A stretch of 64,000 bases of DNA from Eubacteriales bacterium (GCA_028706405.1 JAQWBM010000004.1:3294-67293); one strand, 5' to 3'. Positions 25,817 through 63,735 are shown, numbered from the stretch's first letter. Translations and numbers: made by a program. Notes: a model not told the origin generated them from the sequence alone.

Positions 25817-26989
25817 ATGTATTCACAAATAGTAAGCGGATCGCTATACGGGTTGGCCTCGGAGCAGGTGATCGTAGAAACCGATCTGTCTCCGGGACTG
25901 CCTGCATTTAATGTTGTAGGGTTACCGGATACGACCGTCAAGGAATCAAAGGAAAGGATTCGTGCGGCAATCGTTAATTCGGGTTATAAATTTCCGGCAA
26001 AAAGAATCATAATCAATTTGTCACCGGCAGGCACAAAAAAGGAAGGAACTCATTTTGATCTTCCTATCGCATTGGGAGTTATGACGTCCGCCGGTTATAT
26101 TGAAAAGGAAAAAATAAATGATTTTGCGTTTCTTGGTGAGCTTTCTCTGGATGGAAGGGTCAACCGAATAAACGGCGCTTTGCCTTTAGTGATCGGCTTG
26201 AGAAATCAGGGAATTGAAAAAATAATACTGCCTATGGATAATGCGGAGGAAGCTTCGGCGATAGTTGATGTGAAACTATATCCTGTTGACCATCTAAATG
26301 AAATTACCGCATTTTTTGAAAATAGAATAAAGATACTTCCTTTTAAAAAGAATAACTTCGACCCGGTAAAGAAAAACCAGGAACGTTTGGACTTCAGCGA
26401 TGTTGCCGGACAGGAGAATATTAAAAGAGCTCTGCAAATCAGCGCGGCCGCATCTCACAATGTGCTGCTGATTGGACCGCCGGGCTCTGGTAAAACAATG
26501 ATGGCTAAGCGAATGCCAGGTATTCTGCCTGACTTAACATATGAGGAAAAGCTTGAGGTCACTAAAATTTACAGCATTGCCGGAGAACTCTCTGCCGACT
26601 GCCCCATTATCGCAGAAAGACCATTTCGTTCCCCTCATCATACTATATCCGGAGCAGCTTTGGTGGGAGGAGGCTCAAGCCCAAAGCCGGGGGAAGTGTC
26701 ATTGGCGCATTTTGGAGTTCTTTTTTTGGATGAACTTCCCGAATTCAACCGAAACATTCTTCAGATGCTGAGACAACCTATGGAGGATGAAAGGGTTGTT
26801 ATAAGCAGAATGAAAGGAACGGTTTCATACCCGTCAAAATTCATGCTTTTGGCTTCTATGAACCCTTGTCCTTGTGGTTATTACGGTGATCCCACACATG
26901 AATGCACTTGTTCGCTGATTCAGATAAGGCATTACTTATCAAAGATTTCAGGACCTCTTATGGATAGTAGCGGACGCGTAATAATTTAG
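25817..26989 (+). pseudogene. comM: ComM/YifB Mg-chelatase-like AAA+ ATPase, 3'-truncated by element insertion
   Basis: Lon-like N-terminus, [20 protein letters not shown]; ends [15 protein letters not shown] where the family continues ...GPL(L/M)DR(I)D... for about 100 more residues. Confidence 0.88.
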
Positions 26990-27128
26990 ATGACATTGAT
27001 AAAGAGCAAATAGAGAAAAGTTCTGAAATTTAAACGGTTCAAGGGTTTTCTATGTTTGCTTTAATTCGGTTGAGGTTTTGAGCCGTTTTCTTTTGATTTG
27101 GAATATTTTATGATATACTAATAAAATA

Positions 27129-27716
27129 ATGATAATAGGAGATATGATCGTGAAACTGAAGGATACAGCCTATTTAATAGATATAAATATTGATGATACC
27201 TATAGCTTAGAATCAACCGACAATAGACATTATGATTTTATTTTTAATCCTGAGTCTCTGACTCGAAATGATTTCACGAAGGTTTTTGCTATTAAGGCTT
27301 CAGACGGATTTGATGAACCTAAAAATATTGCATTAATTGGTTCATTGTATTCATGTGCTAAGGACTGTGCAGTTTTAGAAGATAGCCAGTTGATCGTATT
27401 AATGAATTCAGCAGTAACTGTGATTGACCTTGATACGTTCAAATTAATTGAGCATAAAGAATTTAGCGACTTTGGATGCTTCTTCTCTATATACCCTTTC
27501 GATATGGGGTATCTCGTTTATGGAGAACTTGAAATTGTTAAGTTAAATAAAAACTTAGAAATTGAATGGGATTTTAGCGGCGCGGATATTTTTGTTTCGC
27601 CTGATGAGTTAATTAATCCGTTTAGTATAAATGGAGACACTATTGAATTATATGATTGGAATGGAAGCTTTTATCTTTTAGATAAATCCGGGAATCAAAT
27701 CAATAGAACGAGATAA
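27129..27716 (+). CDS. Hypothetical cargo protein
   Basis: 195-aa ORF; beta-rich pattern; no family recognised. Confidence 0.7.
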   Translation: MIIGDMIVKLKDTAYLIDINIDDTYSLESTDNRHYDFIFNPESLTRNDFTKVFAIKASDGFDEPKNIALIGSLYSCAKDCAVLEDSQLIVLMNSAVTVIDLDTFKLIEHKEFSDFGCFFSIYPFDMGYLVYGELEIVKLNKNLEIEWDFSGADIFVSPDELINPFSINGDTIELYDWNGSFYLLDKSGNQINRTR

Positions 27717-27720
27717 CAGA

Positions 27721-27945
27721 ATGAATATTATTGAAAACGAAAATGATAAAGTGACAATTGATGGCATTCGGATAGAAGGATTCATATCTGATGATAGATG
27801 TAAGGTTTGCAATCAAAACCTAATTCTATATAAAAAATATGATGCCTTATTTTGCCCTGAATGCAATCAATGGGCAGAATCTAAATGCAGTGATCCTGAT
27901 TGCGTATATTGCAGAAATAGACCAGATAAACCATTGGAAAGGTAA
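27721..27945 (+). CDS. Small Cys-rich (Zn-binding) hypothetical protein
   Basis: CKVC, CPEC, CSDPDCVYC. Confidence 0.7.
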   Translation: MNIIENENDKVTIDGIRIEGFISDDRCKVCNQNLILYKKYDALFCPECNQWAESKCSDPDCVYCRNRPDKPLER

Positions 27946-28051
27946 AAACGTTTATGGTAGCGATAAGACGCTTTAAATCGCGAAACGGAGGACAGTAAGG
28001 CTATCGTAGCGGTTATATTCTACTCAAACTTTCCCAAGGAGGAGCCTTCTC

Positions 28052-28480
28052 ATGATATACACAGACCCGACAAAACGAGCAATGCAAATCGCATATAAAG
28101 CGCATCATGGACAGACCGACAAGAGTGATGTACCGTACATATTCCATCCTATACATCTGGCAGAGCAGATGCAAACTGAAGCAGAAACAATTACTGCGCT
28201 TCTTCACGATGTTGTTGAAGATACGGATGTGACACTGGATGACCTTGTCAAAGAAGATTTTTCTTCCGAGGTTATAGCTGCGCTGCAATTGTTGACTCAC
28301 GATGATGCCGTTCCATATTTGGATTATGTACGGGAGATAAAGAAAAATCCTATTGCTCGTGCAGTAAAGCTGGCAGACCTGAAGCACAACAGTGACTCAG
28401 GTCGTCTCAGTACGTTGGATGAAAAAGCACTGGCTCGGTTGGAGAAATATAAAATGGCGATTGCTATTCTGAACACTTAA
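28052..28480 (+). CDS. Stand-alone RelA/SpoT-type HD hydrolase (small alarmone hydrolase-like)
   Basis: AHHGQ..PYIFHP, ALLHDVVEDT, VKLADLKHN; no synthetase domain; GGAGG RBS. Confidence 0.82.
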   Translation: MIYTDPTKRAMQIAYKAHHGQTDKSDVPYIFHPIHLAEQMQTEAETITALLHDVVEDTDVTLDDLVKEDFSSEVIAALQLLTHDDAVPYLDYVREIKKNPIARAVKLADLKHNSDSGRLSTLDEKALARLEKYKMAIAILNT

Positions 28481-28593
28481 TCTTCACTAATAGGTAAGTA
28501 TTGTCCAGATATGTTACACTAGTACTGATTGCAAATTACTTAAACCGAGAATTTCAGCCAATTAAATTAAGCGATGAAAGTGAGGAAGTCATT

Positions 28594-29082
28594 ATGTTTA
28601 GAGAAATGAGAAGAGGAAAACAATTATTGTCAATGGAAGATACTATAGCTGTAATGGACAGATGCACAAATGGTTCACTAGCATGTCTGGGTGATGATGA
28701 TTATCCATATTCAGTTCCACTTAGCTATGTTTATTACAATGGCAAGATTTATTTTCATTCAGCTAAAGCCGGACATAAAATTGATGCGATTACTAAGAAT
28801 CCAAAGGTGTCTTTTTCAGTAATAGATGAAGATACGATAGTCAGTGAAGAATATACAACTTATTTCCGCAGCGCTGTAGCTTTTGGAAAAGTAAGAATTG
28901 TAGAAGGTGATGAATGGCTAGAAGCTTTCAAGGCTTTAGTTGAAAAGTATTCAGGAGATCAGCCTGAAGAAGCCAAGCATAAGGAGATAACCGGATGTAC
29001 GCAGGCATACATTATTGCAATTGATGTCGAACACATAACCGGCAAGGAAGCCATTGAATACGTCAACGCTAAAAAGAAGTAG
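28594..29082 (+). CDS. Nim-family nitroimidazole reductase-like protein (pyridoxamine 5'-phosphate oxidase fold)
   Basis: MFREMRR N-terminus, YPYSVPLSY, IYFHSA..GHK, TTYFRS, IEHITGKEAIE-type ending; start moved to 28594. Confidence 0.8.
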   Translation: MFREMRRGKQLLSMEDTIAVMDRCTNGSLACLGDDDYPYSVPLSYVYYNGKIYFHSAKAGHKIDAITKNPKVSFSVIDEDTIVSEEYTTYFRSAVAFGKVRIVEGDEWLEAFKALVEKYSGDQPEEAKHKEITGCTQAYIIAIDVEHITGKEAIEYVNAKKK

Positions 29083-29179
29083 CCGTTTTCCATATTAGTT
29101 AAAATATGCTGCTAGATTCCAATTGCGCATTATATTTTTATAGATGTTTAATCAATTGACGTTTGAAAGGCGGTTATTC

Positions 29180-29494
29180 ATGGATACGTTAGATTTTGAT
29201 TATTTTTTCAAACAATTGAAAGCCGGGGTATCCATTGACGAAACTTGTTTTTATTTTATTGATGATCCAATGGAGGAAGAGCATTACCTCGGATATCTTC
29301 CAGAATATGAAACCCCTTATTGGGTCGGCTATTGTGATATTCCAGATGGGACTGATTTTTTGACTGCCGAAGAGTTAGTCGATGCAAAAATATTTGATGG
29401 AAAATCACTTAAAGAACGATGGGAGAATGTTCGTATTGTTAGTATCTGGGGTATTGGATTAGATGGTTGGCTCGATTGCTGTCATCATGTGTAA
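29180..29494 (+). CDS. Hypothetical cargo protein
   Basis: Acidic, aromatic-rich ORF; probable ATG 29180 behind AAAGG. Confidence 0.65.
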   Translation: MDTLDFDYFFKQLKAGVSIDETCFYFIDDPMEEEHYLGYLPEYETPYWVGYCDIPDGTDFLTAEELVDAKIFDGKSLKERWENVRIVSIWGIGLDGWLDCCHHV

Positions 29495-29548
29495 TGGAAA
29501 TTGAAGAGTATATTCAAAAGTATATTGGAAAGAAGAGGTGTGTATTAA

Positions 29549-30685
29549 ATGAAAAAGAAATTATCGGTCATCTTATCAATCCTGATTGTAGCAATGTCAT
29601 TTGTGCCAACATATGCGACTAATATTAGTATCAATAACCAGAAGGTTCAGTTCACTGAGTCATCTGGAACGCCATTTATTGATTCTGCCAATCGTACACA
29701 AGTGCCATTTAGACAGACGCTGGAAGCCTTTGGAGCAACGGTAAGCTGGGATAAAGTCAATAATATGGCAGTAGCGGTTAAGGATGGAGTAACCGTTCAG
29801 GTGCCGATAGGAGCCTCATACATAATTAAGGATGGTCAGCAGATAACAAATGATACAGCTGCCCTTATTAAAAACGGTCGAACATATTTGCCAATTAGAG
29901 CTGTTCTTGAAGCATTCGGAGCTGATGTAAGCTGGGATAGTGGCACTCAAACAGTAGTTGCTGTTAGTAGCCAAAGTGAAAAAGAATATAAAAAGATTGT
30001 TGTAGATGGCGGGAATATGAGTGGAAATCGTGAGGCAAATGTTGTTGTGGATATTGGCTTCGGCGATAGAGAATATTGGGCATATACGAACGACTATGGA
30101 CAGTTGTTTCGGGTTACTGCTAATAAAATAACTCTTCAGGATGATGCTACAGAACCCGTTACATCAGACGGACGTTATTATAATGATGAAGCCGCTGTAC
30201 CAGGAACAGAACTATCTAACTATGATCAAGGTCATGTTATCGCAGACTCGTTGGGCGGAGTATCCAATGCTTACAATATTACACCACAGGATAGCACGAT
30301 GAACCGCCACGGCGATCAGGCATATATGGAAAAGAATATTAGAGATGCCGGTGGCTGTACAAATTTTGAAGCAATCATAACCTATCCTAATACAACAACC
30401 CAAATCCCGAGTCATTACCATTATACGTATACGTTAAATGGCAACGTGATCACAGAGGATTTCGATAATGTGAATCCAGATGAAGTTAATAAAACATTAT
30501 CGGAACCGACTCAAAGTCCAGTTTCAAATGAAAGCCATGACATTTCTTCTATTGATACAAATGGCAATGGTCAGGTATCAATAGCGGAAGCTAAAGCTGC
30601 TGGATTCAAAATGCCGATTACAAAAGACCATTGGTTGTATAAGTACATGGATGATCGTGACGGTGATGGGATGGTTGGCGAATAA
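29549..30685 (+). CDS. Secreted DNA/RNA non-specific endonuclease with copper-amine-oxidase-N (cell-surface) domain and EF-hand-like tail
   Basis: Signal peptide; RTQVPFR / RTYLPIRAVLEAFGA repeats; His-Me finger DQGHVIADSLGG...NITPQ...MN; DTNGNGQVS and DRDGDG loops. Confidence 0.8.
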   Translation: MKKKLSVILSILIVAMSFVPTYATNISINNQKVQFTESSGTPFIDSANRTQVPFRQTLEAFGATVSWDKVNNMAVAVKDGVTVQVPIGASYIIKDGQQITNDTAALIKNGRTYLPIRAVLEAFGADVSWDSGTQTVVAVSSQSEKEYKKIVVDGGNMSGNREANVVVDIGFGDREYWAYTNDYGQLFRVTANKITLQDDATEPVTSDGRYYNDEAAVPGTELSNYDQGHVIADSLGGVSNAYNITPQDSTMNRHGDQAYMEKNIRDAGGCTNFEAIITYPNTTTQIPSHYHYTYTLNGNVITEDFDNVNPDEVNKTLSEPTQSPVSNESHDISSIDTNGNGQVSIAEAKAAGFKMPITKDHWLYKYMDDRDGDGMVGE

Positions 30686-30766
30686 GGATTGAAACCATTG
30701 ACAACCCCAACTATACTGGTAATATAAGGATATACGACAAATTTCATCAAGGAAAGGGGTAATTCT

Positions 30767-30952
30767 ATGGAATCATCGAAGCGCACTAAAAAAGCTAAAA
30801 ATACTGAAGACATTGAGGACAAGCAATCGCCAATCCGAGAAGTCATCGAATTCACTAATCCTGTTGAAATATCTGGAGACGGAGAATATCTCTATATAAC
30901 TGAAATCGATACTGACTCCAAATCCAATGTTATGAAAGGATTATTGCAATGA
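30767..30952 (+). CDS. Small hypothetical protein
   Basis: 61 aa; AAAGGGG RBS; stop overlaps the next start (ATGA). Confidence 0.5.
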   Translation: MESSKRTKKAKNTEDIEDKQSPIREVIEFTNPVEISGDGEYLYITEIDTDSKSNVMKGLLQ

Positions 30953-31191
30953 AGGCCACTGGAATCGTAAGAAAAGTTGATGAATTAGGACGTATTGTTC
31001 TGCCAAAAGAACTCCGAACCGTACTGGATATAGAAATTAAAGACCCTGTTGAAATCTTCACAGAGGACGAATACATTGTGCTAAAGAAGTACAACCCTTC
31101 TTGCTGCCTTTGTGGGAGCATGGAAAATCTGAGGTATTTTAAAGACAAGAAGATTTGCCAGAAGTGTATTGACTCATTTAAGGAACAATAA
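30949..31191 (+). CDS. AbrB/MazE/SpoVT-family DNA-binding protein
   Basis: MKATGIVRKVDELGRIVLPKELR plus C-terminal CxxC pairs. Confidence 0.92.
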   Translation: MKATGIVRKVDELGRIVLPKELRTVLDIEIKDPVEIFTEDEYIVLKKYNPSCCLCGSMENLRYFKDKKICQKCIDSFKEQ

Positions 31192-31192
31192 T

Positions 31193-31243
31193 AAACATAT
31201 GTTTTGAACACGTGTTTACAAAAGGCTTCTTTTCGTGTATAAT
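31193..31243 (+). promoter_or_regulatory. Sigma-A promoter overlapped by two LexA (Cheo)-like boxes
   Basis: AAACATATGTTT (31193-31204) and GAACACGTGTTT (31206-31217); TTTACA(31215)-N17-TATAAT(31238). Confidence 0.72.
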
Positions 31244-31278
31244 TATCCCATAGTTAGTTTTTTATGGAGGTGATTGTT

Positions 31279-32703
31279 TTGAACGATAATACATTGGCCT
31301 TGACACAAGAAGAACTAGTTTTGTTAAAAAATAGCGAAGAGGGTAAAGACATTGAAACCTACGGCAATCTATATGAAATTGCCACAAAATATAAATCGAT
31401 TAAACATAGCGATATAGAAAAAATAGGTTTGGACGAAACTGCAAAATTAGTATTGAAATCAGGTAAAGCTAATCTTTTTACGAATATTATGATGGAATGG
31501 TACGCTCGGAAAGACGAAGACATAGCTAACTCAGATGAGACCGTAAAATGCGGATTGTGCGGAAGAGAAAATACATATATTTTCTATATTCGTAATAGGT
31601 ATAATGAAGCAGAGCTACACGTTGGCTCGAGCTGCATTCGTAAATTTTCTGGTATTGAAAATTCAAATGAAATCTTAAAAATGTTTAACGGTAATAAGAA
31701 AATCAGGGAAGAACAACGCCGGATTAACGCTTTCCTTAAAAAGATTCCCAATGCCGATAATCTTATCAGTAAGTCAAGGAGAGAATTTCATGAGTTACCT
31801 GTACTGTTGCCTTGGGACTTGTATAATTCACTAGATGAAGAAATACTGAATTTGAACAAGATATATAACGATTTCAAATCCAGTGGAAATATTAATAACC
31901 TTGAAAATGTCATTTCTCAGTTTAAGGAATCAGAAGAAGTATATAAAGTCCTAAAGCAGCAAGCAAATAAATTTGTAATGAAACGGGAGAGTACTGAAAA
32001 TCAAACCATAATTTGCAAAAGAAGAGAATGCCGCTGGCTCCTTGATACTGGAAATAAGAAGCTTTTTAGGAGGATTGCAGAAGATCAAGGGCTTTATACT
32101 CCCGACACCATTAAAGAAATAAGCAGCCATGATTTTATATCAGAATTAAAACCCGTAATTCAGAAATGCTGCGAAGATACCGCTTTCAAAATTAAGGAAG
32201 TAAGATATGAGGATAAGAAACTTGTATTCTTGATAGATGACCGAATCCATAGAGATGTTTTGGAAGCCACGGTGCCGGAAGAACAGTTTATGAGAAGCAT
32301 AGGCTGGAAATGTGTTTTCCAAGAAAATTATAAAATTATGATTAATCCTGAAGTCTTTACTATAACAAGCTCAAAGCGGAACATAAATGTTATTCTAAGC
32401 CGGGTAAATAGAGCTATTTCTAAAACAGAATACTTGATCGAATTTGTTTATGATGACGATCATGAGAGATTATATTTTGAAAAAAGAATTAATGGAACGT
32501 ATATGGTATTAGGAACGGAATTTTTCTTAAAACAATATTTACGCAATATTGATTTGAGCGAGAAAAAATTGCGTGAAGTTTATATAAATTATTTTCATGA
32601 ACTGGATAAGGATAAGGGTTGGCTATTGATCAAAGATAGAATGGAAAGATATGAATTTGAAAAAATGATGGCAAAAGAAAAACTGGGGAGAAAAAGAGCA
32701 TAG
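31279..32703 (+). CDS. Uncharacterised ~474-aa protein with an N-terminal Cys Zn-finger-like motif
   Basis: CGLCG-x(~20)-VGSSCI; probable TTG start 31279 behind GGAGGTG. Confidence 0.75.
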   Translation: MNDNTLALTQEELVLLKNSEEGKDIETYGNLYEIATKYKSIKHSDIEKIGLDETAKLVLKSGKANLFTNIMMEWYARKDEDIANSDETVKCGLCGRENTYIFYIRNRYNEAELHVGSSCIRKFSGIENSNEILKMFNGNKKIREEQRRINAFLKKIPNADNLISKSRREFHELPVLLPWDLYNSLDEEILNLNKIYNDFKSSGNINNLENVISQFKESEEVYKVLKQQANKFVMKRESTENQTIICKRRECRWLLDTGNKKLFRRIAEDQGLYTPDTIKEISSHDFISELKPVIQKCCEDTAFKIKEVRYEDKKLVFLIDDRIHRDVLEATVPEEQFMRSIGWKCVFQENYKIMINPEVFTITSSKRNINVILSRVNRAISKTEYLIEFVYDDDHERLYFEKRINGTYMVLGTEFFLKQYLRNIDLSEKKLREVYINYFHELDKDKGWLLIKDRMERYEFEKMMAKEKLGRKRA

Positions 32704-32750
32704 CCGATTCATATTGCCGCATACCCCTTATCGGTATAATATATTGTTAT

Positions 32751-32810
32751 AAGCTGAATTATGCTATGTTGAGTTGAGCTAGGCTGAGCCGGGATGAGAT
32801 ATGTTAGGCG
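32751..32810. repeat. Twelve tandem degenerate pentamers (consensus about RNGYT)
   Basis: AAGCT GAATT ATGCT ATGTT GAGTT GAGCT AGGCT GAGCC GGGAT GAGAT ATGTT AGGCG. Confidence 0.7.
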
Positions 32811-32844
32811 AGAATATTGCTGATGTATCAAAAGGAGGCCAATT

Positions 32845-33051
32845 ATGCCTATAAACAGTATTAATTCATCTTATACAGCTAGGGAGCAAAAATTCCGAAG
32901 GCTGGCAAAGAAGCGTGACTTGCGTCTGGTTAAATCAAGAAAAAAATATCCATATGATGGATATATGATTGTTGATGTGTATTTCAATCGAATTGATTAT
33001 GGAGGATTACTGTCGCTTGATGATGTGGAAGAATATTTTCTGCAAAGCTAG
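32845..33051 (+). CDS. Small basic hypothetical protein
   Basis: 68 aa; AGGAGG RBS; followed by a terminator. Confidence 0.65.
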   Translation: MPINSINSSYTAREQKFRRLAKKRDLRLVKSRKKYPYDGYMIVDVYFNRIDYGGLLSLDDVEEYFLQS

Positions 33052-33166: not shown

Positions 33167-33505
33167 CTATTCTTTGTAATCACAGATCTCTTTAATAATC
33201 TTTGCTGCGAGAGCAGTTTTCGCCGGAGAGCAATTGCTCAATAAGTCAGTTATTTCATTTCTCATATAATTCTCTGACGATGAGACAGAGCCGTTCAAAA
33301 TAAAGGACATAGAAACACCCAAGCAATCACATATTGCTGAAAAAGTACTCAGATTGAGAGATGTCTTGCCTCTTTCAATTTTGCTTACATATGCATTTGA
33401 GACATCAAGATATTCTGAGAGTTTTTCCTGTGTAATTCCTTTATCTTCTCTTGCTTTTCTAAGTCGTTTTCCAATTAAAATATAATCTACCGCCAATAAA
33501 ATCAC
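33167..33505 (-). CDS. XRE-family helix-turn-helix regulator without a peptidase domain
   Basis: RLRKAREDKGITQEKLSEYLDVSNAYVSKIERG. Confidence 0.9.
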   Translation of the reverse strand: MILLAVDYILIGKRLRKAREDKGITQEKLSEYLDVSNAYVSKIERGKTSLNLSTFSAICDCLGVSMSFILNGSVSSSENYMRNEITDLLSNCSPAKTALAAKIIKEICDYKE

Positions 33506-36285: not shown

Positions 36286-36286
36286 A

Positions 36287-41266: not shown

Positions 41267-41286
41267 ATATGTGGTGGGAGATTTTT

Positions 41287-51940: not shown

Positions 51941-51954
51941 AGAACGTTGAAAAT

Positions 51955-51982
51955 TCAATCCATAGTTAGCGTTATGTCGTTA
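51955..51982. other. dif-like 28-bp recombination site candidate
   Basis: TCAATCCATAG-TTAGCG-TTATGTCGTTA: 11+6+11 layout with CATA(G)...TTATG inner arms, directly upstream of the tyrosine recombinase gene. Confidence 0.55.
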
Positions 51983-52049
51983 GTATTCTCTTGATTAGCA
52001 ACCAGAACAGAGGTAACATGGACACACCAAAGAAAGAAGGTGTGTTTTT

Positions 52050-52895: not shown

Positions 52896-52912
52896 ACGAA
52901 TAAGATTTAATC

Positions 52913-52945
52913 AGCACTTCTTCCAGGGGGGAGGGGTGCTTCTTT
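52913..52945 (+). terminator. Terminator after the tyrosine recombinase
   Basis: AGCACTTCTTCC...GGAGGGGTGCT followed by TCTTT. Confidence 0.6.
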
Positions 52946-53035
52946 ATTGGAAAGACCGAGCCGCCAGCTGGCAGCACGGAAATTTTTACAGTAATTTTAG
53001 GCAGAAACTTTAATTTACATAGGAAGGAGGTTTTG

Positions 53036-54826: not shown

Positions 54827-55270
54827 ATGGTTGAGAGAATGGAGAGAAGATATTCTGCATTAGATATTGCAAAATATGTTATAAATAAATGCACTGTGGA
54901 AGATTCTCCGATCAGCAACTTACAATTGCAAAAGATATTATATTTTTTGCAAAGAAAATATCTTGTGGATAAAGGGAGACCTTTATTTGATGATGAAATC
55001 CAGGCTTGGCAATTTGGGCCGGTTGTGCCAGAAACATATTATCAGTATTGTGGTTTTGGATCAATGGCTATTACGATGAACTATGCAATTGATATTAATG
55101 AGGATGATTCAAGCATAATTGATACTATTGCTGAAGAAAAACGATGCAGAAATCCTTGGGACTTGGTAGAAGAGACACATAGTGAAGGGAAAGCATGGGC
55201 TGCTATATATCGTAATGGATTAGGTAATCACAAGACAATACCTGTTGAGTTGATAAGGACGAAAGGGTAG
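54827..55270 (+). CDS. Panacea / SocA (DUF4065) antitoxin-family protein
   Basis: ISNLQLQKILYF, QAWQFGPVVP, THSEGKAW. Confidence 0.9.
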   Translation: MVERMERRYSALDIAKYVINKCTVEDSPISNLQLQKILYFLQRKYLVDKGRPLFDDEIQAWQFGPVVPETYYQYCGFGSMAITMNYAIDINEDDSSIIDTIAEEKRCRNPWDLVEETHSEGKAWAAIYRNGLGNHKTIPVELIRTKG

Positions 55271-55278
55271 TAGAGAGT

Positions 55279-56145
55279 TTGATAACTGATAAAGTAGATG
55301 TGAAACGCAATAAATTTAAAATGCTTTTGTTTAGGCTTGCCGAATCTCAAAAGATTTTGAGTTCGCCTAAAGAAAAAAGTGATATTTATATTGAACTTGA
55401 ATCTATATATTCCGGTATAGCTGATAAAGAAGAATTTAGACATTATTATTCTGATATTTTTGCGGTTATATCTCAAGTAGATAAAGACCCCCAGTTAGGT
55501 AATACTGAAGTATTGAATCAGAATATGAATCTAGTTAGGCAAGGATATCAACCTCAAAATAAGGATCCTGAGACAAATCAACTCATTGATATTAGTAAGC
55601 AGATTAATAAGTTATATGACCATATTAATTTGGATATTGCGAGACTTAATTATTTTAAAACGATAGAATCTAGGAGTCAGAGTGACTTAAATAAAGTAAA
55701 TGAAACATTAGAACAAGTCGGAAAATCGGTTTCATTAATGCAAGATAATGTAGAAAAGGCTGACGATATGCAAAAACAGTACGTAACAATACTGGGTATT
55801 TTTGCAGCAATTGTATTAACATTTACGGGAGGAATTGCATTTTCTACATCGGTATTGGAAAATATAGGAAACGCAAGCGTATATAAAATTGTATTAATTG
55901 CGGTAGGTGTAGCGTTTGTATTAATTAATATAATCTATATTTTGACCAGATTTATTTTAGAAATAAATAAAAAGGAAAATGAAGTAATAAAATATCCAAA
56001 GTTTATGCTTATATTAAATTTAGTCTGCGTTTGCGTTGTTTCAATTGTTATCGTAAGCTGGTTTTTCGATGTCGGCAGGGCAGCGGAGATTTTTAGAAAT
56101 TTGATTTATCAAAACTTTGAAACTGCTAACAAAATATCTAACTAG
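55279..56145 (+). CDS. Uncharacterised Panacea partner with coiled coil and three C-terminal TM helices; putative toxin
   Basis: Follows the antitoxin by 8 nt; ILGIFAAIVLTFTGG TM segment; AT-rich. Confidence 0.6.
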   Translation: MITDKVDVKRNKFKMLLFRLAESQKILSSPKEKSDIYIELESIYSGIADKEEFRHYYSDIFAVISQVDKDPQLGNTEVLNQNMNLVRQGYQPQNKDPETNQLIDISKQINKLYDHINLDIARLNYFKTIESRSQSDLNKVNETLEQVGKSVSLMQDNVEKADDMQKQYVTILGIFAAIVLTFTGGIAFSTSVLENIGNASVYKIVLIAVGVAFVLINIIYILTRFILEINKKENEVIKYPKFMLILNLVCVCVVSIVIVSWFFDVGRAAEIFRNLIYQNFETANKISN

Positions 56146-56172
56146 CTAAAGTTAGTAGGGTTATGGATCGAT

Positions 56173-56201
56173 GCCGTTGCGCTTATGCAATGGCTTTTTT
56201 T
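56173..56201 (+). terminator. Intrinsic terminator upstream of the portal gene
   Basis: GCCGTTGC-N6-GCAATGGC followed by T7. Confidence 0.75.
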
Positions 56202-56228
56202 ATGCCCATTTTAGAAAGGAAGAATAAT

Positions 56229-57521
56229 TTGCATATAGATGAAAAATTAATATTACAATGTTTACTGGAGCTTAACAAAAGCATTCCGGCAAAAATAATC
56301 TACAAAGATTACTATGAAGGGAAGCATTCCATATTAAGTGATTACAAGATGCAGGACTCCCGGAGCAATATGAAGCTCGTTTTTAATTACCCACGCAAGT
56401 TTGTGGACAACGAGGTTGGGTATCTGCTTGGGAAGCCTGTGAATTACGTTTCCAAGTCTGATGATGAAAATATCATCGATGCCATTGATATTAACACTAG
56501 CCATTGGGACAAGGAGCATAATATCAACCTAAGAAAGCAAAGCGAAATCTTCGGCGAGGCTTACGAACTCAACTATATCAATACCGATGGAGAGTTTTCT
56601 GCTACTGTGTTAAATCCGCTGAATTGTTATGTGCTGGAAGATGGAACTGCTGAGCGGAATGCTCTGCTTGCAATTCATAAATATAAAAAGCATTTTGATG
56701 ATAAACAGTATATGGACGTTTATACAGATACAGAAATTCTGCATTATCAAATCGGGACTGTGAACAGTGGAAATAGCTATTCAGGTGGAAATCTCACCTA
56801 TACGGGAAGTCACAGCCATATCTTTGGAAGAGTGCCGGTGCTTGTTTGTCCAGCCAATAGCGAAAGAAAGCCCGGCTTTCACGATATCATATCACTTTTT
56901 GATGCGTACAACGCTTTGAATAGCGACTTGGTCAACGAAATTGCGGATCACCGAAACGCTTACTTAATTATTGAGAATAGTAAGCTTGAAGAAGACGATC
57001 TTGGCAAGATGAAGGAGATGGGAATAATTCAAGTCCCGGCAGGAGGAAAGGTATCATGGCTGACCAAAGATATCAACGACAGTTTTGTAAAGAATGAGTT
57101 GGATAATATCGAGAAGAAGATTTACGATCTTATGGATGAGGTTAATTTTTCGGAGAATTGGGCGTCAAATACGTCCTCATTGGCACTTCGGAATAAGCTT
57201 CTGAATATGGAGAACAGAGTGTCAATACGGGAAGCCATTATGGAAAAGGTAATCAAGGAGAGATTAAAGCTTCTCTTTATTTTTTTGTCTAAAAAGGAAG
57301 GCTCTGCATATGACTACCGGGATATTTCCGTGAAATTTACAAGGAATTTACCAACTGATCTTACAGGTCTAGCCGACGTAATCGTGAAGCTTACTGATGT
57401 ATGCAGTCAAGAGACATTATTGACCTTGCTACCTTTTGTAGAAAATCCGAAGCTGGAGGTAGGTAAATATAAGGCAGAGCAGAAAAATACAGAAACTAAT
57501 GAAGGAGAAACAACAGATTGA
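56229..57521 (+). CDS. Portal protein, SPP1 gp6-like
   Basis: YYEGKH, FNYPRKFVDNEVGYLLGKPV, HIFGRVPV, SSLALR, FTRNLP; probable TTG start 56229 behind AGAAAGGA. Confidence 0.92.
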   Translation: MHIDEKLILQCLLELNKSIPAKIIYKDYYEGKHSILSDYKMQDSRSNMKLVFNYPRKFVDNEVGYLLGKPVNYVSKSDDENIIDAIDINTSHWDKEHNINLRKQSEIFGEAYELNYINTDGEFSATVLNPLNCYVLEDGTAERNALLAIHKYKKHFDDKQYMDVYTDTEILHYQIGTVNSGNSYSGGNLTYTGSHSHIFGRVPVLVCPANSERKPGFHDIISLFDAYNALNSDLVNEIADHRNAYLIIENSKLEEDDLGKMKEMGIIQVPAGGKVSWLTKDINDSFVKNELDNIEKKIYDLMDEVNFSENWASNTSSLALRNKLLNMENRVSIREAIMEKVIKERLKLLFIFLSKKEGSAYDYRDISVKFTRNLPTDLTGLADVIVKLTDVCSQETLLTLLPFVENPKLEVGKYKAEQKNTETNEGETTD

Positions 57522-57892
57522 AAAATATTAATAGAATAAAGAGCCTTATAAAAGAGGAGTGCGCTGGATATGTCACAGGCTTCGTCAATAATTACTGTTG
57601 TAATCATGATGAGGCTTGTTTGTATTTTGGAGAAGGTGATATGCTTCGTTGCAAATATTTTGAGGAAGGGGTGCTTCCATTGGAAGAGGATTTGGAAAGA
57701 CAGTACCGGCAGGAACACAATATGGGAGCAGCAGTCGGAAGAAAGGCAAAGCCAAAGGTAAAATGCGAACGGTGCGGAGAACTGTTTGATGCTAATTCTA
57801 ACCGGCAACATTATTGTGAAAAGTGCCAAAAGATAGTTAGGAGAGAACAGTCAAGAGAAAGACAATATCGGCTGCGAGTGAATTCAGCATAG
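57518..57892 (+). CDS. Cys-rich zinc-binding protein with a basic C-terminus
   Basis: CERCG...YCEKC and an N-terminal Cys cluster; overlaps the portal stop. Confidence 0.7.
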   Translation: MKNINRIKSLIKEECAGYVTGFVNNYCCNHDEACLYFGEGDMLRCKYFEEGVLPLEEDLERQYRQEHNMGAAVGRKAKPKVKCERCGELFDANSNRQHYCEKCQKIVRREQSRERQYRLRVNSA

Positions 57893-58106
57893 CATAACGC
57901 ATTAGAGGGGTCTGAAACCTTGTAATTGCAAGGGGTAAAAATGAAAAAATGACCTCTTGATACTAGGATATGGCTTAGCTAAAAAGCAATTAAATTTATT
58001 CGTTTTTTATTTGTCCTGAGTATGACGTTTAAACTGCTCTATTTATATATTTTTTTATAATGTGTATTCGGGCATATGGTCGAATGTGCGAGAAATGGAG
58101 TAATTT

Positions 58107-58685
58107 ATGACAATCGAAGAAGTAAAAAAGTACGTTGAGGAAAACAAAGATAGTGAGGAACTCAAAGCATATTTGAAGGGCTTAATAAGTGTTGACGGAA
58201 TGCAGAAATTCCTTTCTGAAAATGAGGAAGGGAGAAAGTGGCTCGATAGCGAGAAGGACAAACACCTCAATAAGGGGCTTGATACTTGGAAATCCAACAA
58301 TCTTCAGAAGGAAATTGATAAAAAGATTTCAGAGCTGTATCCAGAGGAAACCCCTGAGAAAAAGCAGCTCCGGGAACTGAATGCCAAGATTGAAAAAATG
58401 GAGTCGGAGAAACAGCGAGAGGTTTTGAAAAATAAGGCTCTTACGATTGCTGCGGAAAAGAAACTCCCTATTAATCAGGTCATTGACTTGTTAATAGCAG
58501 AAGATGAGGAATCCACCGTTTCCAATATCGGCAAGTTTGAAGAAATCTTTGGATCTTCCGTTCAGGCGGCTGTCGAAGAACGGCTTAAGGGAGGCGGTTA
58601 CACTCCACCTAACAATGCTGGGGGAGATAATCAGCCAAAGAATTTAAATGAAGCATTGAAAAATCATTATAGCAGAAGTAATTAA
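58107..58685 (+). CDS. Capsid scaffolding protein (DUF4355-like)
   Basis: Charged coiled coil, YPEETPE, VEERLKG; directly before the capsid gene. Confidence 0.85.
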   Translation: MTIEEVKKYVEENKDSEELKAYLKGLISVDGMQKFLSENEEGRKWLDSEKDKHLNKGLDTWKSNNLQKEIDKKISELYPEETPEKKQLRELNAKIEKMESEKQREVLKNKALTIAAEKKLPINQVIDLLIAEDEESTVSNIGKFEEIFGSSVQAAVEERLKGGGYTPPNNAGGDNQPKNLNEALKNHYSRSN

Positions 58686-58705
58686 AAGAAAAGGAGATTA
58701 TTATT

Positions 58706-59686
58706 ATGGTAACTTTAGAACAAGCAAAATTAAACACACAGGACGATATCCAAATCGGCGTTATTGATGAATTTAGAAAGAGCTCATTTATACTGGACAA
58801 TATTGCATTCGATGATGCAGTGACTCCCGGCACAAACGGAGCAACCCTTACATACGGCTATACAAGACTGATTACTCAGCCGACAGCCGCATTTCGTGAA
58901 ATAAACGCAGAGTACACCGCTCAGGAAGTCACAAAGCAAAGATATACTACCGAATTAAAACCATTCGGTGGCTCATTCCAGATTGATAGAATTATTGCTA
59001 ATACAGGCGGTCTTGTAGATGAACTGAGTCTTCAGGTACAGCAAAAGGTTAAGGCTGCAAAAAGTCTCTTCCACGACACGGTTATTAATGGGGATTCAGC
59101 TGTGGATACGAAATCCTTTGATGGATTGAATAAGGCAATCACCGGCTCCAGTACAGAATACAACACTGGATCATATATTGATCTTTCCAGTTCATCTGCG
59201 GTAGATAGCAATTATAAACTGTTTCTTGATTCAATTGACGAATTCTTATCTAACCTTGATGGAAAACCATCTTTCCTTGGTGGAAACTCAAAGCTGATTA
59301 CCAAAATCAAATCCGTAGCAAGAAGAGCAGGATATCTCACTCAAAGCGAAGATGCTTTTGGTAGAAAAGTTGATGCATACGATGGGATCGTGCTGGTTGA
59401 TCTCGGAGAAAGATCGGGAAGCAATCTTCCGGTCGTTTCTATTGTTGATACAAGAAAACCGAATGGAACGGATATTGTAACTGGTCTGACTGACCTTTAT
59501 GCGGCGAATCTGTCACTGGATGGATTCCATGCCGTTTCGCTTGCGGGTCAGGACTTGGTGAAAATCTGGCTTCCTGACTTCACAACCTCAGGAGCTGTAA
59601 AAACGGGAGAAGTCGAAATGGTCGCAGCCGTTGCGCTCAAAGCAACAAAGAGCGCAGGAGTTTTCAGAAATATAAAGGTAGCGTAG
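58706..59686 (+). CDS. Major capsid protein (HK97 fold)
   Basis: 326 aa after the scaffold; FREINAEY, PFGGSFQIDR, TGEVEMVAAVAL patterns of Firmicutes phage capsids. Confidence 0.85.
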   Translation: MVTLEQAKLNTQDDIQIGVIDEFRKSSFILDNIAFDDAVTPGTNGATLTYGYTRLITQPTAAFREINAEYTAQEVTKQRYTTELKPFGGSFQIDRIIANTGGLVDELSLQVQQKVKAAKSLFHDTVINGDSAVDTKSFDGLNKAITGSSTEYNTGSYIDLSSSSAVDSNYKLFLDSIDEFLSNLDGKPSFLGGNSKLITKIKSVARRAGYLTQSEDAFGRKVDAYDGIVLVDLGERSGSNLPVVSIVDTRKPNGTDIVTGLTDLYAANLSLDGFHAVSLAGQDLVKIWLPDFTTSGAVKTGEVEMVAAVALKATKSAGVFRNIKVA

Positions 59687-59698: not shown

Positions 59699-60028
59699 AT
59701 GGCGAAGATATACTGTAATAAAGAGTTTAACGGTATATCGGTTACGGTAAACTTTATTAACGGGGTAGGGGTCAGCGATGATCCTTACCTCATTTCTTGG
59801 TTTACTGAGAATGGATATACAGTGGAAGAAGAAAAGAGAGAGCCATCAGAATATGATTCTTTATCTTACAAGGAACTGACTGAACGTGCTAAGGAACGTG
59901 GATTTAATGCAATTGGCGTAAAGAAGGAGCAGTTGATTGTAGAGCTTATAAAACTTGATGAAGGAGCAGCAACGGGCTTATGTGAAACGAAAAATTCAGA
60001 ACAGAAATCAGAAGAAGCGGAGGAATAA
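59699..60028 (+). CDS. Small head-associated protein
   Basis: Directly after the capsid gene; C-terminal HeH/Rho-N-like segment (YKELTERAKERG..KKEQLI). Confidence 0.6.
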   Translation: MAKIYCNKEFNGISVTVNFINGVGVSDDPYLISWFTENGYTVEEEKREPSEYDSLSYKELTERAKERGFNAIGVKKEQLIVELIKLDEGAATGLCETKNSEQKSEEAEE

Positions 60029-60031
60029 GGC

Positions 60032-60337
60032 ATGCTTGTAATTGTAAAAATGCTGCTCGGCATTGCAGTGGACGATACTTCAAAAGATGATGTACTGAAT
60101 CACTTCATCGGACTGGCTTTGAAGATGGCACTGTCTTATTGTAATATTACCGATATTAGTTCGGAATATAACGGAGCGGTCGCAGAGCTTGCAGTTTATT
60201 TATATAAGAACAAAGATAGCACCGGGTATAAGCAGAAGACCGAGGGAGAACGCAGCGTTACATATATAGATGGAGCGATTCCAGAATATATTAAATCAGC
60301 ATTGCCGCTACCAAAGATAAAGGTTGGAGGTGCTTAA
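60032..60337 (+). CDS. Head-tail connector (SPP1 gp15 / HK97 gp6-like)
   Basis: KMLLGI...ALSYCN...AVAELAVYLY...TEGERSVTY pattern. Confidence 0.8.
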   Translation: MLVIVKMLLGIAVDDTSKDDVLNHFIGLALKMALSYCNITDISSEYNGAVAELAVYLYKNKDSTGYKQKTEGERSVTYIDGAIPEYIKSALPLPKIKVGGA

Positions 60338-60618
60338 TGTTTTATGAGACATTAATAAAAATATATTCCAGCCCCGGCTCTACAGCATACATTAAATCCT
60401 TATACGCAGATTTTCAACCCTATACCAAAAGCATATTGTTTGAGGATGGATTTCAAATTGATATATCAAACAGGATATTTTGTGATCCTGATACATCAAT
60501 CGACACTGAAAAATATATAGAAGTTGAAAATGAACTGTATAAAATAATGGATTTAATAAAATGGGACGGTTACTATGAAGTACACCTGTACAAGCTGAAA
60601 CGGCAGGTGCAGTCATGA
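60337..60618 (+). CDS. Probable head-closure protein (gp16-like)
   Basis: 93-aa beta-rich ORF after the connector; coupled by TAATG. Confidence 0.55.
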   Translation: MFYETLIKIYSSPGSTAYIKSLYADFQPYTKSILFEDGFQIDISNRIFCDPDTSIDTEKYIEVENELYKIMDLIKWDGYYEVHLYKLKRQVQS

Positions 60619-61766
60619 CGCAAGAAATAGATGAAATGCTTGATTTTCTTCTTTATGAAAAAGGCGAGGAAATTACGATTAATGTAGCAGTGCAAGTTGC
60701 TCTGATAATAGATGCGGCAGATAAGCCGACCTATTATGATGATAAAATTATCCGTGTGAAAGGCCAGTTAAAAACCGGCGATATGATTGGATATAACAAT
60801 GTTAAATATCTTGTTATCAGCCAGGTCAATAAAGAAGAAAAATCATATAAGGCAAGAATCAGAAAATGCAGCTATCGTATTGCTTTCAACTGGTCGGGTA
60901 ATATTAAATGGTTTGATTGTATTGAAGAAAGTAGCTTCTTTGATGTCTCTACCGGTACTATTATTTCCACAGCTACTGGGAATATTTTTGTTACTCTTCC
61001 GTACAATTCTGATACAAGAGCTATTTCTTTAAGCCAGAGATTCTACGTGACCAATCAACCGTTTAAAGTGGTCGGAATCGATAAATCGCAAGAGGGACTT
61101 ATAAAGTTAAACTGCGCATTAGATACGATTATTCAGACTGATGATGATGTCGAGAATAATATTGCAGATCGATGGAAATACGAAGTGGCGCATACGTACG
61201 CTCTTACCATTATTAATGGGGATGCGGCCAATGTCCTTATTAATGATGTTATGCAATTGAATGTAACGGCTACGGATAATGGAACGTCCATAACAAATCC
61301 GGCGGTTACCTTTGCCAGTAATAATCCGGAAATTGTAAGTGTTGATAATTCTGGAAAGGTGATGGGCATTGAGTTGGGACAGGCAACTGTTACTGCCAAG
61401 CTGACATATCATAATACGATTTCAGATACGATAACTGTAACATCAGTAGAAACAGAAACCCATAATTATTCGATCAGTATTTCCGGCAGCAGCACGATTA
61501 TGAGCGGAGTAAAGAAGTCTTTTGTTTCACATATTTATGATAACGGTTCGGAAGTTACGGATAAATCCGTTGTATGGAGCATCAGGAATCAAGATGGGAC
61601 TACGTCGATGGCATATGCTACGATCACAGCAAGTACCGGCACCAGTGTCACCGTAAAAGCTGATTTAAGCATCAGCTGCGTCGGAAAATATGTGGTTTTG
61701 AAGGCAACTTTGTCTGATGATGCGACCGTCTTTAGTGAACACATAATTGAGATAATTGATATTTAA
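60615..61766 (+). CDS. Virion-associated protein with bacterial Ig-like (Big_2) domain(s)
   Basis: VTFASNNPEIVSVDNSGKVMGIELGQATVTA Ig motif; beta-barrel-like N-terminal region. Confidence 0.75.
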   Translation: MTQEIDEMLDFLLYEKGEEITINVAVQVALIIDAADKPTYYDDKIIRVKGQLKTGDMIGYNNVKYLVISQVNKEEKSYKARIRKCSYRIAFNWSGNIKWFDCIEESSFFDVSTGTIISTATGNIFVTLPYNSDTRAISLSQRFYVTNQPFKVVGIDKSQEGLIKLNCALDTIIQTDDDVENNIADRWKYEVAHTYALTIINGDAANVLINDVMQLNVTATDNGTSITNPAVTFASNNPEIVSVDNSGKVMGIELGQATVTAKLTYHNTISDTITVTSVETETHNYSISISGSSTIMSGVKKSFVSHIYDNGSEVTDKSVVWSIRNQDGTTSMAYATITASTGTSVTVKADLSISCVGKYVVLKATLSDDATVFSEHIIEIIDI

Positions 61767-61776: not shown

Positions 61777-61801
61777 GGGCTTGCCAAGCGGCAAGTCCTT
61801 T
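61777..61801 (+). terminator. Terminator closing the structural operon
   Basis: GGGCTTGCC-AAGC-GGCAAGTCC followed by TTT. Confidence 0.75.
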
Positions 61802-61822
61802 CTAATATAAAGGGGAATTTAA

Positions 61823-61945
61823 ATGATAGAAATTTCAGTATTACAAATACTTTTAAAAGAAAATTTGATCACGAAAAGTGAATTTGATAAAGCAAGCAAA
61901 GAAGTCAAGAAAATGGCTAAAAATCAACAGTTAGAGCTTGATTAA
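61823..61945 (+). CDS. 40-aa SHOCT-like microprotein upstream of the recombinase (not in ORF track)
   Basis: MIEISVLQILLKENLITKSEFDKASKEVKKMAKNQQLELD*; AAAGGGGA RBS. Confidence 0.6.
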   Translation: MIEISVLQILLKENLITKSEFDKASKEVKKMAKNQQLELD

Positions 61946-62016
61946 TCATGCATAAGATTATATCATGCAGTGGACGCAATAGGAAAATTTTAGGTATTTA
62001 AGAAAGGTTATTATTC

Positions 62017-63597
62017 ATGGATAAAGTAGTATATTACGGCAGAGTATCAACAGAAGAAAAGGATCAGGTCTTAGCATTATCAAGACAAAAAGAGGAACTG
62101 GAAGAATACATTAATTCCCAGATCGACTGGGAGCTTGTGGGTGCATATGTTGATGAAGGAAAAAGCGGCACGAGCGAACAGGGCAGAAAGCAATATCAGA
62201 AATTATATGATGATTTGGAATCAGATAAGTTTGACATTGTAGTGATTAAAGATATTTCCCGGCTTAACCGGGATACGTTAAACTGGTACCTTTTTGTTGA
62301 TAGATTATTGAAAAATGAAAAGAAGTTGTTTTTCTATGATGAGAAAAACTACTATAGACCAGATGACGCTTTGATTATAGGGGTAAGAGCATTGATAGCG
62401 GCTCAATTCAGCAGGGACTTAAGCAAAAAAATCAATATGGCTCATACGCAAAGGGCAAAGAAGGGCAGAGCCGTCACGAACGGGAAAATGTGGGGTTACA
62501 ATCAGCACGATGGGCAGCTAACCATTAATGAAGAACAGGCCGAAGTGGTCAGAAAAGTCTTTGCTATGTATATTGATGGAATGGGCTTCCGAACTATTGT
62601 GAAAGAATTTACACGACTTGGAATTTTTAATCAGGATGGTAATGAGTTTTCAGAAACAACACTTAAGCGGATGATTCGGAATGAAAAGTATAAGGGGGTT
62701 CTGATCAGCAATAAGCGGCATAAGGATTTTGATACAAAAAAAGTTAATGACGTTCCTGAAGACCAGTGGATTGTCAGGGAAGGTGCTGTCCCTCCAATTG
62801 TGAGTACTGAGATTTGGGATCAGGCAAATGAAATCCTGGCTGGTAAGAGGCAGGTTTATAAAGATGGGGACAAAGAAAAGATGGCTGGTTATTTTAAAGG
62901 CGGCTATGTTTACTCGGGTAAAATCAAGTGCGAAGCTTGTGGAGAGACTTATTGGCATCAAACATATAAGTACACTACCAAAAAAGGTATGGCAGAGCAG
63001 GATGTTTGGCAGTGCGGTACATATCGGAAATTTGGAAAGTATACGGAGGACGGTTGTGGAAATCCACAGATTAAAACTGAGGAATTGGATCGAATGGTTA
63101 AAGGCGTAATATTTGACTTTTGGAATAATAAGGACAGTGTTATCAAAAATGCTTTAAAGGCTTTAGATAAATCACTCGGGGAGGACACTTCACTTGAGGA
63201 AATTAAAAAGTGTGATTCAGAAATTGCGAAACTGGAGAAGAAAAAAGAAAACCTCATCAATATGCGGGTGAATGCGGAAATTACAAAGGATGAGTTCGTA
63301 ATGCAAAAGGAGAAACTTGAAGGTGTAATTGAAAACTTCCGAAAGCAGACAAAAGAATTAGAAGTTAAAAGCTCAGAATTAGTCGACAAGAAAAAAAGAC
63401 TACTACTTATAAAGGACTTTCTTGGGGATAAATTGAAAAGTCCCGAGGGCATTGATGAAGAAATTATAAAACACTTTTTAATAGAAGTTCTTATAAAGAA
63501 AAATGGTGAGGTTGCTATCACATTAGATGGTGGCCTCACTTTTTTATGTAAAAGGGATGGCGGTGAAAATAATAGTCAGATGGACATTGCGGTTTAG
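62017..63597 (+). CDS. Large serine recombinase (integrase)
   Basis: YGRVSTEE (catalytic Ser), DISRLNR, recombinase domain, Zn ribbon CEACG...WQC, coiled coil; promoter TTGATT(61938)-N17-TATCAT. Confidence 0.95.
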   Translation: MDKVVYYGRVSTEEKDQVLALSRQKEELEEYINSQIDWELVGAYVDEGKSGTSEQGRKQYQKLYDDLESDKFDIVVIKDISRLNRDTLNWYLFVDRLLKNEKKLFFYDEKNYYRPDDALIIGVRALIAAQFSRDLSKKINMAHTQRAKKGRAVTNGKMWGYNQHDGQLTINEEQAEVVRKVFAMYIDGMGFRTIVKEFTRLGIFNQDGNEFSETTLKRMIRNEKYKGVLISNKRHKDFDTKKVNDVPEDQWIVREGAVPPIVSTEIWDQANEILAGKRQVYKDGDKEKMAGYFKGGYVYSGKIKCEACGETYWHQTYKYTTKKGMAEQDVWQCGTYRKFGKYTEDGCGNPQIKTEELDRMVKGVIFDFWNNKDSVIKNALKALDKSLGEDTSLEEIKKCDSEIAKLEKKKENLINMRVNAEITKDEFVMQKEKLEGVIENFRKQTKELEVKSSELVDKKKRLLLIKDFLGDKLKSPEGIDEEIIKHFLIEVLIKKNGEVAITLDGGLTFLCKRDGGENNSQMDIAV

Positions 63598-63735
63598 TAA
63601 AAAGATTAATGATTCGGTCGATAATTGTTGTTTATATTAATCTGCAATGGTAAAATAAGTAAAACTAAACTTGAATTGGTTTGTAAAGCTGAGCAGTCGT
63701 TTCCTCGAGTATTTGAAGAAAGGGAGAATTATTTT

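Follow-up and report, generated by a model that had tools for sequence, protein, structure and literature searches.

The 64,000-nucleotide stretch of DNA analysed here (the window) comes from an Eubacteriales bacterium (GCA_028706405.1, JAQWBM010000004.1:3294-67293; G000:C41:3294-67293 in our numbering of genomes and contigs), on a contig that runs 23 kb further. Most of it past the first 27 kb belongs to an integrated element of 38,903 bp, inserted in comM, that is probably a phage-sized, tail-stealing capsid-forming satellite from a conserved family of Bacillota. From left to right, the order is a truncated comM, cargo and defence genes, an RNA polymerase (RNAP), a primase-like protein, a TOPRIM protein, a ParB-methylase, terS, an Xer recombinase, terL, portal, scaffold, capsid and neck genes, a gene with immunoglobulin-like (Ig) domains, and a large serine recombinase (LSR); a first-pass annotation of the same DNA had read this order, and Pfam and PHROG agree with it. 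The same annotation suggested an undescribed class of RNAP-bearing capsid-forming element. A conserved tail-less design supports this suggestion, as does the literature, where full-text searches, including ones on YomX and on YonO in satellites, found no description of such elements; that the element behaves as a satellite and is transcriptionally autonomous, which was part of the suggestion, we infer. A satellite of this kind would be as large as its helpers, would bring its own single-subunit RNAP and replication genes along with some 12 kb of defence and other cargo, and would turn to a helper for tails and lysis only, widening the concept of tail stealing in Gram-positive spore-formers. 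To our knowledge, described satellites, such as phage-inducible chromosomal islands (PICIs), their capsid-forming relatives (cf-PICIs), P4, PLE and PICMI, are small and dependent on host or helper transcription.

Boundaries, head genes and the missing tail side

The element spans window positions 26966 to about 65868, its right end lying 1.9 kb outside the window. A GGAT core common to both parts of comM is found at 26962-26965 (attL) and 65865-65868 (attR), and fusing the comM flanks at this core yields an uninterrupted ComM of 529 aa (ISGPLMD/RFDMHIDIMPV around the junction, marked by the slash). The empty site is represented by 11 genomes of the same genus with uninterrupted comM frames of 522-540 aa. 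The 5′ part of the host gene (25817-26965, plus strand, the open reading frame [ORF] extending to 26989) matches Pfam Mg_chelatase (E 4.5e-87) and ChlI and is cut at the attL core; right of attR lie the 3′ part of comM, encoding the C-terminal domain, and dprA, topA, hslVU and codY. The LSR (62017-63597, plus strand) has the Resolvase, Recombinase and Zn_ribbon_recom domains of Pfam, which together with a short att core and a precisely split target gene are the features of an LSR-type integrative element. Integration into comM, whose truncation the first-pass annotation had noted, is borne out by the att core and the restored ComM frame. A related element of about 39.7 kb in a metagenome-assembled genome (MAG) of Desulfosporosinus interrupts comM at the identical codon (ISGPLLD/RFD), with similar attP half-sites and an LSR 46% identical to the one described here. 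Four more LSR genes occur in the genome, on contigs C4, C37, C39 and C25, which suggests other LSR-borne elements.

The integrase, at which the first-pass annotation ended the element (63,600), is not its last gene. It is followed by a 497-aa Zn-ribbon protein with one transmembrane (TM) segment (63625-65118, plus strand, crossing the window end at 64000) and by a 175-aa protein with a signal-peptide-like N-terminus (65248-65775, outside the window). Tail genes just beyond 64000, envisaged at that time as a possible refutation of a tail-less element, do not exist; these two non-tail cargo ORFs alone precede attR.

All ORFs of the element were screened with Pfam and PHROG, and PADLOC was also used. 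From attL to attR, 38.9 kb, no ORF matched tail, holin or endolysin families in Pfam or PHROG, and no peptidoglycan hydrolase, ejection protein, tape measure, nozzle or fibre was found across the same span. The early impression that tail and lysis genes were not visible therefore holds for all screened ORFs, including those past the window end. An autonomous tailed phage would have a tail module and a lysis cassette inside its att sites, and the element has neither. A siphovirus prophage in the same assembly (G000:C9:10745-29709) served as a positive control: besides terL, portal, protease and capsid it has Ad1, Hc1 and Neck1, a major tail protein and a tape measure of 847 aa, and PHROG annotation recognised the last five of these. 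This prophage is a candidate helper that could supply tails. An initial suggestion that the genome contained no helper, made when Pfam PhageMin_Tail, Sipho_tail and Phage_sheath_1 gave no genome match, was overturned by the PHROG annotation of C9. No second copy of the element's structural genes was found in the same genome.

The element does encode the parts up to the head-tail interface. The packaging genes (51368-54649, plus strand) are terS (phrog_309), an Xer-type tyrosine recombinase (Pfam Phage_integrase) and terL (phrog_38). The Xer gene (52050-52895) sits between terS and terL, and it lies upstream of terL in 20 of the 22 related loci with enough upstream sequence. In a variant of the closest relative (L206, a 38,677-bp contig of Logan SRR13347290), Xer is replaced by an opposite-strand ORF of 162 aa, the remainder being unchanged. 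Downstream on the plus strand (56163-59686) follow an SPP1-type portal (Pfam SPP1_portal, E 1e-97), a Cys-rich 124-aa protein, a DUF4355 scaffold (E 1.5e-30) and the major capsid protein (phrog_212, E 6.8e-72), which is 45-55% identical to capsid proteins of siphophages of about 40 kb. A podovirus origin of the capsid module was considered and dropped, since C. perfringens phage CPD1, which is related, encodes a tape measure protein. Head completion would be carried out by a 109-aa protein, a 101-aa Phage_connect_1 adaptor (PF05135, E 1e-11; phrog_132, head-tail adaptor) and a 93-aa protein (59699-60618, plus strand), whose gene order is kept in all relatives.

The last structural gene (60615-61766, plus strand) encodes a 383-aa Big_2/Ig protein, a putative head-closure 'knob' resembling YomX of phage SPbeta. 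Its homologues carry the precomputed Pfam labels YomX_N, YomX_C and Big_2, and hhalign of its profile with SPbeta YomX gave a weak match (E 6.5e-4). The full-length AlphaFold2 model (pLDDT 82.9) shows a beta-rich N-terminal region and then two Ig-like domains. The best matches in a BFVD fold search are annotated 'Head closure knob' (E 3.7e-24, the labels being predicted ones), which denotes the Hc1 head-closure class (PMC10763512). As Ig domains dominated the PDB fold search at full length, the N-terminal 191 residues were modelled separately (pLDDT 78.8, pTM 0.74). The result is a double beta-barrel, one half of it stopper-like, with PDB matches of high probability and weak E to 2pp6, the lambda neck, PBSX XkdH, R4C, T1, SPP1 gp16 (7z4w), the SaPI1 neck and a gene transfer agent (GTA). 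Assignment of the 383-aa protein as a head-closure (stopper) component bearing Ig domains is moderately supported, and it suggests a tentative role for the YomX family at the portal vertex. Nothing recognisable on the tail side follows. A terminator that had been placed after the Ig gene was not found by a simple scan.

Conservation in relatives

A scan of IMG/VR with the profile of the Ig protein returned 46 loci, 45 of them with sequence past the Ig gene, and in all 45 the next plus-strand gene is an LSR. In the interval from terL to the Ig gene in these loci, the largest ORF other than the portal has 430 aa. The common synteny is RNAP, replication protein, ParB-methylase, amidoligase-like protein, terS, Xer, terL, an accessory slot, portal, scaffold, capsid, a small ORF, adaptor, the 93-aa ORF, Ig protein and LSR. 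It is shared by the Bacillota MAG JAEZUC010000059.1 (RNAP 68% and LSR 25% identical), by IMG/VR proviruses (RNAP 43%, capsid 88% and LSR 27% identical) and by the Desulfosporosinus MAG, where the LSR also comes directly after the Ig gene. The cultivable carrier Paenibacillus polymyxa has an element at about 4.05-4.08 Mb of CP097778.3, in which the packaging-head-Ig-LSR block is the same and comes after a 1173-aa ORF (distantly similar to the RNAP), a D5-type primase and a ParB-methylase. Of 10 sampled records, 8 have large RNAP-like ORFs (1133-1194 aa); the ninth has a shorter split ORF (766 aa), and the tenth an unmatched 1096-aa ORF at the same position. Across element lineages, RNAP identity is 23-68%. 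The LSRs of relatives, at only 24-28% identity, indicate other integration sites and hence independent mobility. The family is rare: an even sample of 401 genomes from the phylum contains 3 with it, and 4 of 301 genomes of the host family have the RNAP.

These relatives decide whether the element is a one-off deletion remnant, as it would have been had close homologues carried full tail and lysis modules at the same position. None does: the LSR follows the Ig gene at every one of the 45 IMG/VR loci and in the genomic relatives. Since the same tail-less architecture recurs in close and distant relatives, a one-off remnant is rejected.

Family members may insert in tandem or one after another, as two IMG/VR records suggest. 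IMGVR_UViG_2922690425_000003 (G349) has a remnant of the Ig gene (96 aa, 8886-9176) upstream of a complete element, and in IMGVR_UViG_2751185905_000007 (L195, L197), a provirus record of 53.7 kb, the Ig-LSR module is present twice.

More distant RNAPs of the same long clade occur in tailed phages of 37-61 kb (G333, G336 and G343; L136-L138 and L143-L147), together with YomI-like tape measures of 1889-2778 aa. Their RNAPs are 37-39% identical to that of the element in G333 and G336, and G343 is a record of 60.7 kb with direct terminal repeats. G336 is unusual in gene order, having its tape measure gene between terL and portal. Contig size in IMG/VR differs between two forms of the RNAP: it is 17-61 kb for full-length relatives (about 1000-1150 aa, with an identity of at least 30%) and 76-233 kb for the short YonO-like form (identity about 24%), the latter with a few short fragmentary exceptions. 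The tail-less family plausibly derives from SPbeta-related, RNAP-bearing temperate siphophages by loss of tail and lysis genes.

A probable satellite as large as a phage

Induction, the targets of the RNAP, self-packaging and tail borrowing are parts of a course of events that we infer as follows. The LSR would insert the element into comM at the GGAT core and excision would restore comM, so that cells carrying the element would lose natural competence and regain it on excision. In the integrated state, an XRE repressor presumably silences the element, while the IIG enzyme, helicase, T5orf172 protein and toxin-antitoxin cargo would be expressed. Induction would lead to excision and to replication by the element's own primase-like and TOPRIM proteins. 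The YonO-type RNAP would transcribe the long co-oriented operon downstream of it, as YonO does in SPbeta, and TerS and TerL would package the element genome into self-encoded capsids, the portal being sealed by the adaptor and by the YomX-like stopper or 'knob' with its Ig domains. Tails and lysis would come from a helper phage, either co-resident (e.g., the C9 siphovirus prophage) or superinfecting. Alternatively, tail-less DNA-filled heads might be released and meet tails outside the cell. Both tail stealing and the release of tail-less capsids that later meet tails have been reported for cf-PICIs (10.1101/2022.09.08.507074; 10.1101/2025.02.11.637232).

The cf-PICIs would be the nearest counterpart in working. 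Like EcCIEDL933, for example, the element is integrated and has terS, terL, portal, capsid and head-tail connectors, with no tail genes. In addition, cf-PICIs are reported in Firmicutes and rely on the tails of helpers (10.1101/2022.09.08.507074; 10.1101/2025.02.11.637232). However, a cf-PICI has about 15 kb and small capsids, whereas the element has 38.9 kb and a capsid protein like those of siphophages of about 40 kb. The tyrosine integrase, alpA and rep of cf-PICIs stand at the left end, while the LSR of the element stands at the right; no AlpA family was found in Pfam scans of the element, and its replication protein is AEP-like (archaeo-eukaryotic primase) or D5-like. The HNH endonuclease and head-maturation protease of cf-PICIs were not matched either, and a DUF4355 scaffold is present instead. 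Unlike cf-PICIs, the element also has Xer between terS and terL, its own RNAP, a ParB-methylase and the YomX-like knob. [quoted passage not shown]

In several respects the element resembles SPbeta. Both have a YonO-family RNAP directly upstream of a co-oriented late operon and a YomX-family protein in the neck region; in SPbeta, yomX lies four genes past yonB, the putative capsid gene, and precedes the tail genes. In both, integration by a serine recombinase (SprA in SPbeta) splits a host gene, and a tyrosine recombinase gene (yomM in SPbeta) lies inside the late region. SPbeta differs in its size (134 kb, the element being 3.5 times smaller), its full tail with the YomI tape measure, and its lysis cassette; direct BLAST similarity is confined to the RNAP (25%), which in the element is about 270 aa longer than YonO. 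Closer in RNAP are the tailed phages IMGVR_UViG_2740892543_000001, 2757320379_000001 and 3300006217_002453, with full-length RNAPs 31-39% identical, the first two having an Ig/YomX-like protein near portal-side genes. These long-RNAP phages differ from the tail-less family in their YomI-like tape measures, of which that family has none.

Other readings of the same genes are less probable to varying degrees. An unlikely one is a defective or domesticated prophage lineage with ancestral loss of tail and lysis genes, retained for the defence and other cargo it carries, or as a producer of heads in the manner of a GTA or encapsulin, with no satellite mobility. RNAP-bearing relatives with YomI-like tape measures (G333, G336, G343) make tail loss plausible, and the family's rarity (3 of 401 phylum genomes) would fit. 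Against this, lineages with RNAPs 23-68% identical, in different hosts and with integrases only 24-28% identical to the LSR described here, all keep their head, packaging, replication and integrase genes intact, and genomes of the same genus are free of the comM insertion, a pattern that points to continued selection for mobility. The GTA-like version fares no better, since GTAs lack terS-specific packaging, replication genes and integrase modules and have heads that cannot take their whole gene cluster, whereas terS, an LSR with att sites, a primase-like protein and a capsid type fitting about 40 kb are all found in the element. It is very improbable that the element is an autonomous virus with a minimal 'tail', in which the adaptor, the 93-aa protein and the Ig knob would make up a stub, closing the portal as well as attaching to cells, with no need of a helper. 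Two exposed Ig-like domains, typical of adhesion, are found on the knob, which is the most conserved terminal structural gene, and the size is that of a full phage with its own RNAP and replication genes. But no hydrolase, ejection protein, tape measure, nozzle, fibre, holin or endolysin was found in the 38.9 kb, in tailed phages (SPbeta) the homologues of YomX belong to the neck region, and we know of no Caudoviricetes infecting Gram-positive cells with so minimal an apparatus. Least probable of all is a split phage, with the tail and lysis genes of the same entity at a separate chromosomal locus and co-expressed. The C9 phage region has a full tail module and several more LSR genes are located elsewhere in the genome, which speaks for such an arrangement; yet C9 also has its own terL, portal, protease, capsid, Ad1 and Hc1, making it a complete, independent siphovirus rather than a tail-only module, and no linked tail locus was found within 10 kb in relatives from other genomes.

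A tail-stealing satellite remains our preferred reading, and several points weigh against it. With its 39 kb the element matches a phage in size and, unlike classical satellites, has no small-capsid advantage. Its proteins of 259, 479, 497, 195, 180 and 175 aa are without assignment. The stopper assignment of the Ig protein leans on weak Foldseek values (E 0.009-0.6) and on predicted labels, and hhalign of its profile with SPP1 gp16, gp16.1, gp17 and gp17.1 was not significant. Finally, C9 has a GC content of 46%, against 39% for the element, and as a contig of a binned assembly it may be mis-binned, so that it is a candidate helper only. A wider proposal, possible but doubtful at present, is a new class of phage-sized 'head-only' viruses or satellites that would carry out all of their replication and head assembly with their own RNAP and release sealed, Ig-decorated capsids; outside the cell, these would pick up the tails of unrelated phages, or else their DNA would pass through the knob itself with no conventional tail. 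If true, this would explain many of the 'orphan' YonO-like polymerase genes of Firmicutes chromosomes.

RNA polymerase, replication and cargo genes

The RNAP (41215-44550, plus strand) is a single-subunit two-barrel enzyme of 1111 aa in the long YonO-family clade (phrog_8308, E 2.9e-81), with 25-28% identity to SPbeta YonO across residues 161-823. Its homologues in a large protein collection are labelled PF05183 (RdRP), and an alignment of 32 of them has as invariant residues D632, D634 and D636 (DFDGD, the DxDGD motif), R583 and P585. DxDGD with these R and P residues matches the described signature of two-barrel polymerases (PMC2919709), and the enzyme belongs with YonO-type RNAPs by its YonO/PF05183 homology, DxDGD loop and conserved R and P. 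A PDB sequence search with the RNAP profile gave no match. Clostridium phages c-st and D-1873 were also named as having homologues. 'Orphan' or 'enigmatic' YonO-like polymerase genes have been noted in Firmicutes chromosomes (PMC2919709; PMC5467207), and the element would offer a context for them.

YonO transcribes the late genes of SPbeta as one operon that starts just downstream of yonO (PMC5467207). By this precedent and by gene order, the RNAP would transcribe the co-oriented operon of the element at 44.9-61.8 kb. The motif AAATTACCCTCAATT (44558-44572, plus strand), 6 nt past the RNAP stop codon, occurs once in the window and may be a promoter for the RNAP or an operator for the downstream operon, a suggestion with weak statistics. 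Similar motifs, ATATTTACCCTCAA and ATATTAACCTCAA, lie 2-50 nt past the RNAP stop in three other lineages (L048/L008, G330/G342). A search for a repeated promoter motif in the intergenic regions of the element found none, and sigma-70-like sites at 39.3-58.3 kb are no commoner than in shuffled sequence.

The replication module (44871-47805, plus strand) consists of a 683-aa primase-like protein (phrog_25531, E 6e-69) and a 300-aa TOPRIM protein of TopoVI-A/Spo11 type (phrog_6247, E 1e-63; TOP6A Toprim, E 3e-4). The first-pass annotation had named the former an AEP primase. The motifs MIDID and TSFNH and a CHC2-like CLFHDDGSPS can indeed be read in it, but no Pfam, NCBIfam or PDB match backs the assignment, and we call the protein primase-like. 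The replication slot of relatives holds D5_N/DUF5906 primase-helicases. Next to it, a ParB_N-N6_N4 DNA methyltransferase and an amidoligase-like protein (48007-50164, plus strand; Pfam, PADLOC MTase_II E 2.6e-134, phrog_2443) form a pair that is kept in relatives.

Cargo and defence genes make up about 12 kb. Upstream of the RNAP is a tight defence-like operon (33628-39368, plus strand; Pfam) encoding an MmeI-type IIG restriction-methylase of 885 aa, an SF2 helicase of 641 aa and a T5orf172/GIY-YIG-like protein of 387 aa; the IIG enzyme has Pfam MmeI domains and matches PADLOC REase_MTase_IIG (E 0). At the same position, relatives carry a type I restriction-modification system and a NucS-like gene, and the occurrence of different defence systems at one position marks a defence hotspot upstream of the RNAP. 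Divergent from the operon is a candidate repressor of the XRE/HTH_3 type (33167-33505, minus strand; Pfam HTH_3, E 1.1e-16). The left-end cargo (26966-33051, plus strand; Pfam) comprises a 195-aa ORF, a Zn-ribbon protein, an HD-domain protein, a PNPOx-like protein, a secreted protein with Cu_amine_oxidN1 and Endonuclease_NS_2 domains, a MazE-like antitoxin and a 479-aa Zn-finger protein, with no tail or lysis families by Pfam; the 479-aa protein has a single weak PHROG match, to a family of unknown function. A further accessory slot, between terL and portal (54827-56145, plus strand), holds a Panacea (SocA-like) antitoxin-domain protein (Pfam SocA_Panacea, E 5.6e-19) and a 288-aa protein with three predicted TM segments. 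In relatives (L150, L164, L179 and others) this slot varies, with an Rce1-like protease, a Cu_amine_oxidN1 protein, a Zn-ribbon membrane protein or other genes. The MazE-like antitoxin (30949-31191) has several paralogues elsewhere in the genome, on contigs C68, C46 and C10, at 53-59% identity.

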